Source: a virus (Duplodnaviria > Caudoviricetes). Taken from it: a stretch of 64,000 nt of DNA. Each line of letters starts with the position of its first letter. The first letter of the stretch is position 1. The DNA lies in IMG/VR virus record IMGVR_UViG_3300021255_000040, positions 32,001-96,000 of that record; one strand, written 5' to 3'. The notes beneath the pieces are model-generated. The model was not told the origin of the DNA and did not search any database. It saw nothing but the letters and a program-made list of their open reading frames with translations. The position numbers and the translations under genes are program-made. Below are positions 72 to 39,526 of this stretch, in pieces.

Positions 72-142
72 TTGCGGATGTAGGATTTGAACCTCACCTC
101 TTGGTTATGAGCCAAACATGCGACCATCACACTGCATCCACG
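72..142 (-). tRNA. tRNA-Met (CAU), initiator-like, somewhat atypical
   Basis: Reverse complement CGTGGAT...TTTGG-CTCATAA-CCAAG...AGG-TTCAAAT-CCT...ATCCGCA-A; C1xA72 mismatch; no encoded CCA. Confidence 0.8.
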
Positions 143-10991: not shown

Positions 10992-11063
10992 GCCCCCATA
11001 GTTTAATGGAGAAAACAAGATCCTTCTAAGATTTAGTTGGTGGTTCGATTCCACCTGGGGGTA
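10992..11063 (+). tRNA. tRNA-Arg (UCU)
   Basis: GCCCCCA/TGGGGGT acceptor; AGATC-CTTCTAA-GATTT anticodon arm; GGTGG-TTCGATT-CCACC T arm. Confidence 0.9.
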
Positions 11064-22020: not shown

Positions 22021-22092
22021 GCTCCCATAGTCGAGTGGATAAGACGTAGACCTCCTAAGTCTAAAGCACTGGTTCAATTCCAGTTGGGAGTA
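22021..22092 (+). tRNA. tRNA-Arg (CCU)
   Basis: GCTCCCA/TGGGAGT acceptor; TAGAC-CTCCTAA-GTCTA; ACTGG-TTCAATT-CCAGT. Confidence 0.9.
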
Positions 22093-33245: not shown

Positions 33246-35483
33246 ATGATAATTAACAGAAATGAAAGTGAAGTTACCGTCTTAGGTGAAGTACAAAAGC
33301 ATAAGGTAGGCATTGACGAAAGAAACATTAATCATATTGTAACCATTCTGTCCTCTAATCTCTACTCTCATCCAATGCAGTCTTTTCTGCGTGAGATTGT
33401 CAGTAATGCTATAGACTCTCATATTGAGGCTGGAGTCAATGAGCCTGTCATCATTACTATTACTGACAATGATTTGTCCATTAGGGATTTTGGTACTGGC
33501 ATTTCTCCAGAAAGATTTGAAGAGATATTCTTAAACATAGGTAGTAGTACTAAAAGAGACAGTAATGATTATATAGGAACCTTCGGTATCGGCAGGTTTG
33601 CTTCACTTGCAGTAGCAGATATAGTTAACATTACCTCATTTTATGATGGTAAGGCCTACTACTATGTGATGAACAAAGACATAGACCAGCTGCATATTGA
33701 CCTGATACTGGAGAAAGATACTGATGAGCACAATGGTGTAGAAGTGAAGATTCCATTCAAAGCTTCTTTGCAGGATGAAGACTGGAAAGCTCTTGCCTTT
33801 ATCAAGAACCTCTATATTGAGGATAAGAGGAAGTATCCTAATACAGACCAAGGCAGCATCATCTTCTCATTCAATAAGAGGAAAGTCTATACCTACAAGA
33901 CCTTCAAAGTACTGGAGATTGGTTATCCTTATAGCACTAAAGACAGATATACTGAAGTGTTGGTAGGCAATATCCCTTATAGAGTGGACTATAGTTCCCT
34001 GTGGGAGGAAGATAGATATGACAACTGGGAAGATGCATTCAAGAAAGTATGCCCTTGTCTGAATATTGGTGAAGTGGATATTACTCCCAACAGAGAGGGA
34101 TTGCTCTATTCTGAACGTACCAAGAAGGCTTTGTGTAATGCTTATAATGAAGCTATTGATGAACTAACTACACTCTGGGAAGTATCATGCAATGAAGAAT
34201 GCACTGACTTTAGGCAGTTTGCCCATGCCATTAAGAACCACTATGACAATGAACTGAAACTGGAAGGTGGTATCAGGGTTGATGTAGATAATGACCTGTC
34301 CTATATAGTCAAGATGAAGGATTTTCCTAAGTATAACTTCAAGGAACTGAAAGATATTATCCGCACTCTGCTTTATTCCAGCACAGATTATGTTATAACT
34401 TGCTTGGATCATAATGAAATGCAGAAAGGCAGAAGACTACTTGAGCAAAGTATTGAAAGAATAATGGACAAGTGTGATGATGCTTATACTGCCATGATTG
34501 CTATGCCTGCATCTTATGGTATCAGCAGCAAGTATCTCAAGGGTTTCCTCAGTGAGCAGTTTCCTAATCAAAGGGTAATGCTACTCCGAGAGCCTCATAT
34601 CTCTTTAGGCAGAGTCAGAAGTTTTATCCGTCAGAAATATGGTATTACCACTCTGACTGATTCCAAGAAGATGCATCTCATCATAGCTTGTCTGAAGCAC
34701 CTGATGAAGTATTTCAGTCAGCACATTCGCAGATGGGATATTATTAACTCTCCAGAGTATCTTCAGTATAAGGAGGACAATAAGGAAGAGAAGGTGTATG
34801 TTCGTAACAACACTAAAGTGCCTTGTCACATCTGGTATCCTTCTGATACTTCCCCTGAGACTGAGACTGATACACCTAATAACCTGATAAGAAGTCTTCA
34901 CAACAGATACAAAAAGGCAAGAATAGTCTATGCACAGCTTGATAGTCCTTTTATTTATGGCTTCAAGGGTATTAACTACCCTAACCTTATTATTATAGGT
35001 CTGGCTCAGAACAACTATCAGTTGGCTGAAAAGGGAATGTTTCCTGACTATGTAAGACCTATTGAGGAGCTGTATTCTCCTGACAACAGGACTCTTCAGA
35101 GAATAGCTGCTATGGAGTATGTTCGTAATAAGGTACTTGTTACTAGTTTGAGCATGGCTTTCCCTAAACCGTTAAGAGAAATAGCTGATAAGCTCAGTAA
35201 GTATCAAGACAAGTATCCCCATATTGGTCGCCATGATTATAGATATGATGGAGCCTACAATATTCTGAGAGTAGTTCCTGAGGAGAAATATGACAAAGAG
35301 ATTATAGCCCTCTATCATCAGTTGGAAAAACCTTATGAGGTACAGCGTAAGATAAGTAACCACTATGGCAGTAAAAGTGATTTCTTCTGGTATTTTCTGA
35401 TGAAGGCTAAGAAGTTCAGACTGGACTATGACTATTATAAATGTATTAGAGACGACATTGACAAAATAACAAATCTATTATGA
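33246..35483 (+). CDS. rIIA: rIIA-like protein (GHKL ATPase N-terminus)
   Basis: LYSHP...REIVSNAIDSH, DFGTGI, STKR, GTFGIG; coupled to the rIIB-like gene. Confidence 0.85.
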   Translation: MIINRNESEVTVLGEVQKHKVGIDERNINHIVTILSSNLYSHPMQSFLREIVSNAIDSHIEAGVNEPVIITITDNDLSIRDFGTGISPERFEEIFLNIGSSTKRDSNDYIGTFGIGRFASLAVADIVNITSFYDGKAYYYVMNKDIDQLHIDLILEKDTDEHNGVEVKIPFKASLQDEDWKALAFIKNLYIEDKRKYPNTDQGSIIFSFNKRKVYTYKTFKVLEIGYPYSTKDRYTEVLVGNIPYRVDYSSLWEEDRYDNWEDAFKKVCPCLNIGEVDITPNREGLLYSERTKKALCNAYNEAIDELTTLWEVSCNEECTDFRQFAHAIKNHYDNELKLEGGIRVDVDNDLSYIVKMKDFPKYNFKELKDIIRTLLYSSTDYVITCLDHNEMQKGRRLLEQSIERIMDKCDDAYTAMIAMPASYGISSKYLKGFLSEQFPNQRVMLLREPHISLGRVRSFIRQKYGITTLTDSKKMHLIIACLKHLMKYFSQHIRRWDIINSPEYLQYKEDNKEEKVYVRNNTKVPCHIWYPSDTSPETETDTPNNLIRSLHNRYKKARIVYAQLDSPFIYGFKGINYPNLIIIGLAQNNYQLAEKGMFPDYVRPIEELYSPDNRTLQRIAAMEYVRNKVLVTSLSMAFPKPLREIADKLSKYQDKYPHIGRHDYRYDGAYNILRVVPEEKYDKEIIALYHQLEKPYEVQRKISNHYGSKSDFFWYFLMKAKKFRLDYDYYKCIRDDIDKITNLL

Positions 35484-38400
35484 GAATTGTAAGAGTAAAC
35501 AATAGCTTAACGGCTATATTGTCTGATGGCAGAATCATTCAGACAAACAATTGCACTGATGAAATCTTTGAGCAGGTGAAGAAGTTCAAGGAAGATAATA
35601 ATGAATTTGAACTGATTAACCTGCTGATTCCTGAGATTGATGAGGATGATGCAGAGGAGAATGAGCAGAAGAAGTTCCGTACATTCTTTATTCAGACCGC
35701 TAAGAAAGCTGAAACCTCTGCTATCCTTGAGGTAAAGACTGATGACAATGGTGTTCAGGCTATGTACTGGAACTCAGTATCTCCATTATCCTTGCCTCCT
35801 GAACTGGCAGAGAGAATCCTTAAGGCTGAGAAGGATGGTGATGAGAACCTGCTGGATACCTATAAGAATTTCTGGACTCTCACTTCACTAAATCCTCGTC
35901 CAGAGGTCAGGAGAAATCTGTTCAGGTTCCTGTCTAAGTGGGGCATGGTTATCTCCAAGTCTGGCTTGTTTGTAGGTTATAGAAATGTAGAGGTGAAGGA
36001 AGAGGGTAAAACCCCAGAGACCACTATCTTTACTGATTCTCACAGTCACTCCACAACTATCCGTATTGGTCATGTAACCTCATTACCCATTGAAGAGTGC
36101 GACCTTGATAATGACAGAGAATGTAGTAGAGGGTTAACATGTAGCCCACTTAGGAAGTAATTCCTTTGGAAAATAACGGGTAAAATCGGTGAAGCTATTT
36201 AACATTTACTTTAGAAATATTTAGGACATTAATTAGGTGGTTGCTCTATTGGAGCAATTTCTGTACCTTTACAACAACAAAAGATTGTAAAGGATGAAAT
36301 TCACAAAAGAGCAATTAGAAAAGATTTATTTAGAAGAGTGCGTAAACAACAAAATGCGCTACTCTGAAGTTAAAAAGAAGTATGATATTCCAAGAGGTAC
36401 TTGGGACTATTGGATCAGGAAAAGAGGAGGCAAAAAGGCAGACCTTAGAAGGCACAGGCCAAATGATGACTTCTTTAATTCCATTGATTCAGAAGTAAAG
36501 GCTTACCTACTTGGATATTTGTATGCTGATGGGTATTTAGCATCTGATGGTAGAATTGGGATTAGATTGCAGGAAGATGATGTAGAAATAATAGAAATGA
36601 TACAGAAATATATCTGTCCTAATAGTCCTGTTGAATCTTCAAATAATCAAAATTTCAAAAGAAAACCACAGCATTCTATTAGATGGAAATCTCCAATAAT
36701 GTATAAAAGACTGCAAGAATTAGGGTTTTGCATAGATAAAACTCATACAGATTCTAATATTTTTCAGCTAATCCCTGAAGAATTGAAAAGGCATTTTCTT
36801 AGAGGATATACTGATGGAGATGGTCATATACAATCCTATAGACTAGATAATAGCACTTATAGAAAGATTAGTATAGTTTGGGCTAATGGAAGTTCTCAGA
36901 TACTGACAGATATTCAAAATTGGCTACCTCAATACCATTGGCATCTATATAACAATGAAACTTTTTATGTTTTAGGATGCTATACACAGCATGATGTATA
37001 CAGAGTAATAGAACTGCTTTACAAAGATGCAAACTTCTTTTTAACTAGAAAAATGAATCAAGCTAATAAAATATTTGATTTCTTTAGTAATAGTAATACC
37101 GAGCTAACTCAACAGATTGCGTAAGGCTGTTGGGTAGTGTAACGCATAGGTGGTGAATAAATATAATCCACCCACGAGTATCCGTCTCCTTATGGGAGCA
37201 AAATATATGCTGAACTGCAAGAAGAGTTAAAGTACTTGCAGAACTACAGGATAAAAAGCCTGTAGGATAACAAAATTGTACACATCGGAGGTACTTCATG
37301 GCTCCGCTATAACTATTTTGGTGATACAGGTCTTGTATGTCTGGTCAATCCAATGGATGTAGTTGCTGTGCCTTAATATACCAGGGCCACATAGTAGAAA
37401 TATTATGTGATAACGGGCAAAAACGGTGAAAGTTAAACTTTACAAAATACTTGTCTATTTCATTGAAAATTACTATCTTTGTAATTGAAATGAAGATAGA
37501 GAAATATACAAATGAAATAAATCTTGCAGATATTGGAGTATACATTATTACTCATAACAACACTCCAACTGTCTATGTAGGCTCTACCTGCTGTAAAGGT
37601 GGTTTTGCTGAAAGATGGAGACACCATATTTTGTATTTAGAAAGAGGGAAAAATAATCCTGTACTAACAAATATATGCAAGAAATATGGAATTGAAGGTT
37701 TTAGATTCTCCATTTTAGAGAGAATGAATGGTTGTACACAAGAAGAAATAAGAAAAAGAGAAAGGTATTATATTGAGAAATATGATAGTTATACTCATGG
37801 AGCAAATTGTAGTTTAAGCACAGATTGTTCCTTTAGAGTGCAGAAACATTTTCCTAATACTCCTGAAAAGTGTCAAAAATATAAAGATACTTGTACAACC
37901 AAGAAACCAATGTATGTTTATAATGGAAAAGGCGAGTTAATATATACTTTTGAATCAAGTGTTGAAGCTGATAGATTCTTCGGACTCAAAAAAGGTTCTT
38001 GTGGAGATAAAGCCAGAGAGGGATGGTCTCTTAATGGCAAGTACTGGTTTAGTCGTACTAAGAAAGACTGGATACCAGAACAATTGAGACAAGAACGTAT
38101 AAAACAAGGTCAAGAAAGAGCAGCTAAAACTCGTAGAGAGAATGGCAGCTATGATAATAGGCCTATTAGAAGCGGTTTTCATGTATCTGAAAAAGCTAAG
38201 ATTAAAGCAAGAGTATCTAATAAAATAAGTATGAAAGTTGACTTATATAACTTAGATGGATCTTTCTATAAATCCTTTGAATCCCTTAATGAGTGTGATG
38301 ATTTTCTTGGTTTAACGAGAGGAGCTACATCTAAAGTACTCAAAAATAAAGCAAAAACACTAAAAAGAAAGTATATACCAGTAAAGCATACTAATACCGT

Positions 38401-38858
38401 GCTAACTGATTAGATTGCGTAAGGCTAATCAGTAGTGTAGAGCGTAGGTGGTGAATAAATATAATCCACCCAAGAGTGTCCGCTTCTGACTGCTACAATT
38501 GTAGTAAAAGAAGAAAATGTACGCCGAACTACAGGGAAACTTGTAGAACATAGGGATAAAAAGCCCTATGGATAACAATTTGTGGCATAATGCAGAGTAT
38601 GGTAAGATTCGCACTTGTGCCTATCTTCCTATTGGTACTGCCCAGTATAATGACAATGGCTACATTATTCCATATACAGACCAAGATGGCTTTGACTCCA
38701 AGTATGTCAAGCAGATTCTCTATGATGGAGTGATGAATCCTGAGGATAATCCTGAGTACAGTGTGCAGATTGATGTTAGAACTACTGGCCAGACCTACAA
38801 GTCAGTTTCTGATAAGCTCCTTGAAGTGGCAAGGAAGTTTATCAAGGAACAAAGATGA
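35480..38858 (+). CDS. rIIB: rIIB-like protein, spliced (exons 35480-36134, 37279-37373, 38583-38858; 341 aa)
   Basis: Joining the exons restores CSRGLHIGGTSW...LVNPMDVVAVPWHNAEYGKIRTCAY in frame. Confidence 0.88.
36135..37278 (+). mobile_element. group I intron 1 in rIIB
   Basis: P1 GGGU/GCCC with U.G splice site; P3 ACGGGTA/TATCCGT; P4 CGGT/ACCG; P7 GCATA/TATGC; terminal G. Confidence 0.9.
36294..37124 (+). CDS. intron-encoded double-motif LAGLIDADG homing endonuclease
   Basis: AYLLGYLYADG and HFLRGYTDGDG. Confidence 0.9.
   Translation: MKFTKEQLEKIYLEECVNNKMRYSEVKKKYDIPRGTWDYWIRKRGGKKADLRRHRPNDDFFNSIDSEVKAYLLGYLYADGYLASDGRIGIRLQEDDVEIIEMIQKYICPNSPVESSNNQNFKRKPQHSIRWKSPIMYKRLQELGFCIDKTHTDSNIFQLIPEELKRHFLRGYTDGDGHIQSYRLDNSTYRKISIVWANGSSQILTDIQNWLPQYHWHLYNNETFYVLGCYTQHDVYRVIELLYKDANFFLTRKMNQANKIFDFFSNSNTELTQQIA
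37374..38582 (+). mobile_element. group I intron 2 in rIIB
   Basis: P1 GCCU/GGGC; P3 CGGGCA/TGTCCG; P7 GCGTA/TACGC; terminal G; core nearly identical to intron 1. Confidence 0.9.
37490..38413 (+). CDS. intron-encoded GIY-YIG homing endonuclease with NUMOD1 repeats
   Basis: GVYII...VYVGS...RW..H...E..YI..Y; TATCTTTG at 37474-37481. Confidence 0.88.
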   Translation: MKIEKYTNEINLADIGVYIITHNNTPTVYVGSTCCKGGFAERWRHHILYLERGKNNPVLTNICKKYGIEGFRFSILERMNGCTQEEIRKRERYYIEKYDSYTHGANCSLSTDCSFRVQKHFPNTPEKCQKYKDTCTTKKPMYVYNGKGELIYTFESSVEADRFFGLKKGSCGDKAREGWSLNGKYWFSRTKKDWIPEQLRQERIKQGQERAAKTRRENGSYDNRPIRSGFHVSEKAKIKARVSNKISMKVDLYNLDGSFYKSFESLNECDDFLGLTRGATSKVLKNKAKTLKRKYIPVKHTNTVLTD

Positions 38859-39526
38859 CCATACAAGAGTATTTTGGTGACTGGTCTAAAGTGGTAGACC
38901 TACAGGAGGCTGATAGGATTATTAAGAAACTGTCAGCCTCTAATCATATCATCTGCCCTCAACTCAAAGACATCTTCAAATGTTTCAGGCTCTGCTCTCT
39001 CAGTAATCTAAGAGTGGTACTAATCGGACAGGATCCTTATCCTCAGAAAGGAGTGGCTACAGGTCTTGCCTTTGCCAATAGCCCAGACACTCCAGAAAAT
39101 TCATATTCTCCTTCCTTGGAAATCCTTAGGGAATCTGTAATCAACTACACTATCCCACATAGAAGAGTTACTTTTGCTCCAGATTTGGAGAAGTGGGAAG
39201 CACAGGGGGTGCTGCTGTTAAACTCAGCACTTTCCTGTGAAGTAGGAAGAGTAGGAAGCCATACATTACTGTGGAGACCTTTCATCAAGTCCTTACTCAC
39301 TAATCTCTCAAAGTACCATACAGGGCTGGTTTATCTGCTCATGGGAACTCAGGCTCAAAGTCTGGAACCCTATATCAACAAGCAGTTCAATCATGTGATT
39401 CATATCAGACATCCCTCATGGTATGCACGTCAGAGGCAGAGAATGCCTTCTGACATCTGGCAAGAGATTAACACCATTCTCATAGGTCAAAATGGCTATG
39501 GTATAGAATGGTTCACAGAGTATTAA
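38855..39526 (+). CDS. ung: uracil-DNA glycosylase family 1
   Basis: GQDPY, GLAF, SPSL, VLLLN, HPS. Confidence 0.93.
   Translation: MTIQEYFGDWSKVVDLQEADRIIKKLSASNHIICPQLKDIFKCFRLCSLSNLRVVLIGQDPYPQKGVATGLAFANSPDTPENSYSPSLEILRESVINYTIPHRRVTFAPDLEKWEAQGVLLLNSALSCEVGRVGSHTLLWRPFIKSLLTNLSKYHTGLVYLLMGTQAQSLEPYINKQFNHVIHIRHPSWYARQRQRMPSDIWQEINTILIGQNGYGIEWFTEY

Follow-up and report, generated by a model that had tools for sequence, protein, structure and literature searches.

Why does the rIIB gene of a crAss-like gut phage lie in three open reading frame (ORF) fragments with two endonuclease genes between them? The locus is part of a 64,000-nucleotide (nt) stretch of DNA (here, the window), which comprises bases 32001 to 96000 of IMG/VR record IMGVR_UViG_3300021255_000040, a virus record of 123,180 bp with direct terminal repeats. 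From our analysis, it is very probable that rIIB of this 123-kb phage holds two mobile group I introns, both from a single intron family that is widespread in phages. The annotation is thereby corrected from three ORF fragments and two “endonuclease genes” to one rIIB gene of 341 amino acids (aa) and two mobile introns.

Three lines of sequence evidence identify the gene as rIIB: exon 1 matches PHROG RIIB families, intronless homologues carry precomputed PF26926 (Phage_T4_rIIB), and an rIIA-like gene lies directly upstream, its stop overlapping the rIIB ATG at 35480 (ATGA). Exon 1 as a query returned 62 homologues, many of them exactly 341 aa long and with precomputed PF26926; a local Pfam copy matched no family on the intronless protein P0002, despite its precomputed PF26926. 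The closest named relatives of this rIIB are those of IAS virus and uncultured phage cr116_1 (Crassvirales, Steigviridae), at about 39% protein identity, and megablast of the region against GenBank phages gave no match.

An earlier sequence-only reading of this DNA had proposed that removal of the two inserts restores a 341-aa rIIB frame with the junctions GGGT/TACAC and GCCT/TGGCAT. The three exons joined give 1026 nt, which encode 341 aa plus a stop. This product aligns with P0002 over 340 aa without gaps and at 98.5% identity (exon 1 by itself is 99% identical to P0002 and 100% identical to P0001), without gaps with more than 20 further homologues of 340 to 346 aa, and with no or few gaps with more than 40 others. 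The DNA of the joined exons aligns from end to end with an intronless allele in a related phage (L003:2223-3248), with 43 substitutions and no indels. Because the joined exons fit both the intronless protein and the intronless DNA, the coordinates, junctions, and 341-aa product of that proposal are correct at the sequence level. An intein is ruled out, since the ORFs within the inserts are read in a different frame from the exons and have stops on either side.

Table 1. Coordinates of the rII genes, the two introns, their predicted ribozyme elements and endonuclease genes, and the tRNA genes of the window
Feature	Position	Strand	Evidence or remark
rIIA-like gene, 745 aa	33246..35483	+	PHROG 612 “RIIA lysis inhibitor,” E 4.5e-62; HATPase_c_3
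rIIB exon 1, 218 codons + 1 nt	35480..36134	+	PHROG 609/11221/2886 “RIIB”; 3' end GGGU
Intron 1, very likely group I, 1144 nt	36135..37278	+	Precise excision restores frame; omega-G at 37278
Intron 1 ribozyme 5' half	36135..36193	+	Sequence, fold, P3 long-range covariation, alignment
Intron 1 P10 guide UGUA	36140-36143	+	
Intron 1 P1 guide UAGCCC	36142-36147	+	
Intron 1 P2	36152-36156 with 36161-36165	+	
Intron 1 P3 5' strand	36176-36181	+	Followed by J3/4 AAAA
Intron 1 P4 5' strand	36186-36190	+	
LAGLIDADG homing endonuclease gene, 276 aa	36294..37124	+	P5 loop of intron 1; LAGLIDADG_3 33.9 bits (cut-off 22.5); PHROG 4645 E 2.3e-44
Intron 1 ribozyme 3' half	37094..37278	+	Alignment of 52 3' halves, pair counts
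Intron 1 P4'	37098-37102	+	
Intron 1 P6	37103-37105 with 37136-37138	+	
Intron 1 P6a	37108-37115 with 37127-37134	+	
Intron 1 P7	37142 and 37144-37148 with 37206-37211	+	C 37143 bulged
Intron 1 P7.1-like hairpin	37149-37153 with 37168-37172	+	
Intron 1 P3'	37180-37185	+	
Intron 1 P8	37186-37189 with 37195-37198	+	
Intron 1 P9	37215-37221 with 37235-37241	+	
Intron 1 P9.1	37244-37250 with 37259-37265	+	
rIIB exon 2, 95 nt, residues 219-250	37279..37373	+	First bases UACAC, last GCCU; own start codon absent
Intron 2, very likely group I, 1209 nt	37374..38582	+	Homologous intron at same site in L009 and L079; omega-G at 38582
Intron 2 P1 guide AGGGC	37383-37387	+	
Intron 2 P3 5' strand	37413-37418	+	
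Intron 2 P4 5' strand	37423-37427	+	
GIY-YIG homing endonuclease gene	37490..38413	+	P5 loop of intron 2; GIY-YIG 29.1 bits (cut-off 22.6); PHROG 314
Intron 2 ribozyme 3' half	38392-38582	+	
rIIB exon 3, 91 codons + stop	38583..38858	+	First bases UGGCAU
tRNA gene	73-141	-	Rfam
tRNA gene	10992-11063	+	Rfam
tRNA gene	22021-22092	+	Rfam

At both junctions, an exon U precedes the intron and forms a G-U wobble with the guide, and the last base of the intron is a G. In intron 1, GGGU pairs with GCCC in P1 and UACA with UGUA in P10; the corresponding pairs in intron 2 are GCCU with GGGC and UGG with CCA. Minimum-energy folding recovers P1 and P2 in both introns. Each P1/P10 guide fits its own site, and the guides of the two introns differ as the sequence-only reading had described. 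The exon codons that span site 1 in intron-plus alleles read AGAGGGU/UACACAUC.

The ribozyme structure was assessed by covariation in an alignment of 52 distinct 3' halves, including those of both window introns and of an ORF-less family member, L056. In the proposed structure, 94.3% of the cells are paired, compared with 72% in shuffles and 30 to 51% with slid partners; double-sided changes occur in 28 of 40 pairs, and none of 500 shuffles reaches the observed values. Covariation backs P3, P6/P6a, P7, the P7.1-like hairpin, P9, and P9.1. The sixth (closing) pair of P7, which adjoins the bulged nucleotide, covaries perfectly (A-U in 31 sequences, G-C in 21), and of the 38 distinct combinations of P3 strands on the two sides of the ORF, 28 pair fully and 9 lack one pair. 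The P8 columns are poorly aligned and 55% paired, with a local hairpin there in every sequence. The pairing of P4 was excluded from the evidence, as its 5' strand had been found by searching for the complement of P4'. Introns of subgroup IA have an extra pairing between P7 and P3', with P7.1/P7.2-type hairpins after the 5' strand of P7. In the present introns, the segment between P7 and P3' has one hairpin, of 5 bp with a loop of 14 nt and a covarying middle pair, and there is no sign of a second hairpin.

L056 (L056:3443-3675) matches Rfam RF00028 (Intron_gpI) over the full model with 63.7 bits (gathering score, 50), and the Rfam alignment agrees with our assignment by hand for P3, P4, P5, P4', P6, the hairpin insertion before P3', P8, and P9. 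Three members with a short gap between P4 and P4' (L037, L025, and L031) score below the gathering score. Family homology, covariation, the U/G junction rules, and exact restoration of the frame in combination make it very likely that both inserts are group I introns. The compensatory changes noticed earlier between the two introns, in P7 (GCAUA/UAUGC in intron 1, GCGUA/UACGC in intron 2) and in P6a, are real and belong to covariations found throughout the family. The cores are homologous but less alike than the “near-identical” of that reading: mean column identity is 82% in the 3' halves and about 67% over the whole core alignment with variable stems counted.

As the sequence-only reading had it, the two introns carry endonuclease genes of different families at the same position. 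This is borne out by Pfam and PHROG matches and by placement in the structure: the P4 strands are 916 nt apart in intron 1 and 977 nt apart in intron 2, and each ORF lies between them, i.e., in the P5 loop. The intron 1 ORF has two LAGLIDADG motifs (LLGYLYADG and FLRGYTDGDG), and its 3' end reads through P5', P4', and P6 into the P6a loop. The intron 2 ORF encodes 307 aa from its ATG, or 320 aa if it starts at a TTG at 37451, and stops within the 5' strand of P6a; in addition to GIY-YIG, it matches NUMOD1 (27.1 bits; cut-off, 22.8) and, below the cut-off, an I-HmuI NUMOD-like DNA-binding module. Both genes are intact and under purifying selection, with ratios of nonsynonymous to synonymous substitution (dN/dS) of 0.06 to 0.11 for the LAGLIDADG gene and about 0.2 for the GIY-YIG gene (overall, 0.06 to 0.22). 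A perfect 9-bp hairpin (CCUUUACAA/UUGUAAAGG, within 36266-36293; z, -2.7) stands directly before the LAGLIDADG ATG, and a weaker fold (37454-37500; z, -1.9) covers the GIY-YIG start. These folds may serve translational control.

The wider family was collected by one exact 24-nt hairpin motif common to both inserts. The motif occurs at 64 IMG/VR loci, and its flanks have one conserved architecture. The distance between P4 and P4' is bimodal, either about 27 to 120 nt or 720 to 1030 nt (23 copies, nearly all of 900 to 1030 nt), and members with the long gap carry an ORF in the P5 loop. Among the sampled members, P5 cargo of the LAGLIDADG_3 type is found at at least 12 loci (mostly nrdD introns) and GIY-YIG with NUMOD1 at at least 7. 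Because both recur in P5, two cargo families in one loop are a trait of the whole family and not of rIIB alone; the apparent swap is thus a family-wide pattern, which weakens the interpretation first given to it, and LAGLIDADG cargo, held to be uncommon in phage introns, is not rare in this family. A GIY-YIG gene is also found in P8 (L014 and L061) and in the hairpin after P7 (L012). The host genes include nrdD (many members), the class I/II RNR large subunit, family A DNA polymerase, helicase, and tail genes. In L012 (L012:1250-2460, - strand; identical in L090), two tandem family introns lie about 130 nt apart in another gene, both with a GIY-YIG ORF in the hairpin after P7 and not in P5.

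Among related phages, the two rIIB introns move independently. Neither is present in L003, L004, and L005; L006, L007/L008, L010, L011, and L089 have intron 1 only; L009 has intron 2 only; and both occur in the window and in L079, whose exon 1 and rIIA are 61% and 41% identical in protein to those of the window. Intron 1 of L006 differs from that of the window at 3 of 1144 nt, whereas the identity of exon 1 is only 76%, and climbs to 93% over the 30 nt that adjoin the intron. A near-identical intron beside a diverged exon is what recent lateral transfer leaves when the co-conversion tract is short. Both insertion sites lie within invariant protein blocks, C-S-x-G-L-H and V-P. The codons at site 1 are always GGG U/UA in intron-plus alleles and GGU C/UG or C/UU in intron-minus alleles, all of them synonymous, a pattern that fits (i) the need to pair with the guide of intron 1 through GGGU, (ii) co-conversion, or (iii) resistance of intron-minus alleles. 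In a more distant relative, L091, whose rIIB is 30 to 42% identical, site 1 is occupied by a member of the intron 1 clade in which P5 is short and lacks an ORF (L091:3790-5065, - strand). The distant LAGLIDADG gene of this intron (30% identity) lies between the 5' splice site and the guide, i.e., in the loop of P1, and the ORF reads through the guide.

Two further observations concern these relatives. In L079, the LAGLIDADG ORF (L079:7811-8632, - strand) has an in-frame TAG at codon 18, which could reflect stop-codon recoding in that phage or early decay. In L003 (L003:3245-4952; compare window 38855-39526), whose rIIB is 98.5% identical to that of the window, the UDG gene downstream of rIIB is split into parts of 60 and 172 aa around a LAGLIDADG_2 ORF; the flanks of the insert have a canonical GACUA/UAGUC P7 and a P9 region resembling that of intron 2, and UDG is intact in the window. 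Near-identical phages thus carry introns in different genes, since L003 combines an intronless rIIB with a split UDG gene and the window has the reverse.

We propose the following explanation. Each intron would form a P1-P9.1 ribozyme that excises itself from the rIIA-rIIB transcript by two guanosine-dependent transesterifications. Splicing would join GGGU to UACAC and GCCU to UGGCAU and so yield the 341-aa rIIB. In a mixed infection, the two-motif LAGLIDADG enzyme of intron 1 or the I-TevI-like GIY-YIG enzyme of intron 2 would cut an intronless rIIB, and repair of the cut allele would copy the intron in. Homing by its own endonuclease would thus allow each intron to spread independently among related phages. 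The lateral transfer of intron 1 and the allele-specific synonymous codons at site 1 are indirect signs of such cleavage. Most likely, one intron arose from the other or both arose from a recent common ancestor, after which the guide would have been retuned and the P5 cassette exchanged.

Kinship of the two introns was inferred by maximum likelihood (ML) from 55 core sequences (P3-P4 segment plus 3' half). The unrooted tree splits all rIIB introns from the other 48 sequences with support of 99.9/95, and by this measure each of the two rIIB introns has the other as its nearest relative in the sample. Support for the intron 1 clade is 100/98, and the two intron 2 sequences are placed between it and all others. 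With a root among the other 48 sequences, where midpoint rooting would put it, the rIIB introns would be a clade and intron 1 would descend from an intron-2-like ancestor. Both introns share a 21-nt P3-P4 signature (AUAAYGGGYAAAAWCGGUGAA) that, within introns, was seen in rIIB and a single other gene; in metagenome contigs, the pattern is found at 17 loci, about 10 of them chance matches outside intron context. Overall, descent of both introns from a common ancestor within rIIB is somewhat favored by these sequences. The proposal that one scaffold spread and swapped its cargo is therefore no more than plausible: homologous introns 95 nt apart, unrelated cargo in the same loop, and the 99.9/95 split speak for it, whereas an unrooted tree makes descent within rIIB only likely and the swap pattern is family-wide.

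We tentatively suggest a more specific scenario, in which an rIIB ribozyme seeded the second site 95 nt away by ectopic insertion (e.g., reverse splicing or illegitimate repair) and then had its whole P5 cassette replaced (LAGLIDADG for GIY-YIG) as the almost invariant flanks P4 and P4' recombined. L091 would represent a third state, with the same ribozyme clade and site and a different LAGLIDADG gene in the P1 loop. If this scenario is true, the rIIB clade is a natural series that records intron transposition and modular cargo exchange.

A rival explanation, which we consider rather unlikely, is that rIIB was colonized twice, independently, by different family members, each with its own P5 cargo, and that the similarity of the two introns stems from sampling bias or gene conversion. 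No cargo swap is needed under this explanation, because both cargo types are already found in P5 across the family. A rough comparison of the cores sets intron 2 nearer to several non-rIIB introns (identity, 0.72) than to intron 1 (0.67), the tree lacks a root, and alleles with only intron 1 and with only intron 2 both occur. Against two separate colonizations stand the ML tree, which sets the rIIB introns apart with 99.9/95 support, and the signature that they have in common, which together with a GUAA loop of P6a is rare elsewhere. Moreover, L009, which has intron 2 only, keeps the features of the rIIB clade, which argues against similarity produced by co-residence alone.

Several points weigh against our own explanation. 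Rfam gave no group I match in the window at the gathering score or in 35900-38800 with E values up to 10, as is expected when an ORF of 830 to 920 nt splits each core. Rfam also gave no match on the rIIB-site relative L091, whose P5 lacks an ORF, so that the case for group I introns is built on homology, covariation, and the junction rules. Contigs from four metatranscriptome runs (X15, X16, X17, and X20, of which X15 and X16 look like one dataset filed twice), compared with 35300-39000, gave no direct RNA sign of splicing. No contig from these runs bridges site 1, and the one that joins 37374 to 38588 with GGGC between them has the sequence of intron-2-less alleles, e.g., that of L003 (UGGGCU, not UGGCAU), and is thus uninformative on splicing of the window allele. 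As for kinship, a root on the intron 1 branch would make the two introns non-sisters, closer relatives of either may have been missed by a sample drawn with one exact 24-nt motif, and gene conversion between introns 95 nt apart could inflate their similarity. With intron 2 placed between the intron 1 clade and all other sequences in a tree that has no root, descent from one ancestor within rIIB is no more than likely and could have run in either direction.

That the inserts are not introns at all, and that endonuclease cassettes broke rIIB into a pseudogene or separately translated fragments, is highly improbable: phage genes split by free-standing endonucleases are known and Rfam finds no intron in the window, but exon 2, with only 31 codons and no start codon, has residues conserved across 46 homologues, the exons are in frame with only synonymous differences at site 1, the flanking RNA shows strong helix covariation with a P3 pseudoknot across the ORF, and the arrangement is kept in phages whose rIIB is only 30 to 60% identical.

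The two mobile introns of rIIB resemble several known systems. In the group I introns td, nrdB, and nrdD of phage T4 (I-TevI, I-TevII, and I-TevIII; subgroup IA2), which are self-splicing, an ORF in a peripheral helix overlaps the core at its 3' end, and the ORF layout is alike here. The T4 introns are also patchily distributed and spread by homing, like the rIIB introns; T4 has an nrdD intron, and many members of the present family are likewise in nrdD. The GIY-YIG cargo of intron 2 has the layout of I-TevI, with a catalytic domain, a linker, and DNA-binding modules. The ORFs of the T4 introns are in P6a or P9.1, whereas those here are in P5, and a single hairpin lies between P7 and P3'. Several group I introns close together in one phage gene, as here, are known from Twort orf142 and the DNA polymerase genes of SPO1, SP82, and Bastille, but those are phages of Bacillota and other genes. 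In Bastillevirinae, the cargo of related introns can be HNH, GIY-YIG, or LAGLIDADG (PMC11878797).

In crAss-like phages, group I introns with endonuclease ORFs, including LAGLIDADG, are reported to be frequent in some groups (Yutin et al. 2021, PMC7886860). These introns belong to the same phage order and lie in conserved genes, as here, and they weaken the earlier interpretation of the locus as unusual. The host genes listed in that study are those for MCP, PolB, primase, TerL, and RNAP, and rII is unmentioned; the present case differs in its host, rIIB, and in having two related introns 95 nt apart. The earlier interpretation is further weakened by the GenBank record of cr116_1 (MT774389; L093:1-3007), in which rIIA is annotated in two pieces around an “intron-encoded endonuclease.” A Crassvirales rII gene is split there as here, but it is rIIA, and rIIB is intact. 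A full-text literature search found no paper describing an intron in rIIB, nor was a pair of nearest-relative ribozymes with LAGLIDADG and GIY-YIG in one gene found described in the literature.

The locus is thus a well-supported example of a type of element already known in crAss-like phages, and the principles involved (homing, and independent histories of intron and endonuclease) are already established. It has some value as a natural series for the study of cargo exchange between related ribozymes. The data set on the association of ribozyme and endonuclease includes four occupancy states, a lateral transfer of very recent date, synonymous codon changes where homing would occur, one loop with cargo of two families, and a relative whose cargo lies in another loop. 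Metagenomes of ruminant and gut phages are rich in this family, most of which escapes the Rfam model, and this matters for gene calling in crAss-like phages.

The metatranscriptome comparison yielded two minor observations. Depth is high at 37160-37283 because many family members have this conserved P9.1 region. A sheep-gut contig (X20) matches an intron-1-like ribozyme in which 25 nt stand in place of the 880-nt ORF region (36203-37084), and its source is probably a relative elsewhere that lacks the ORF.

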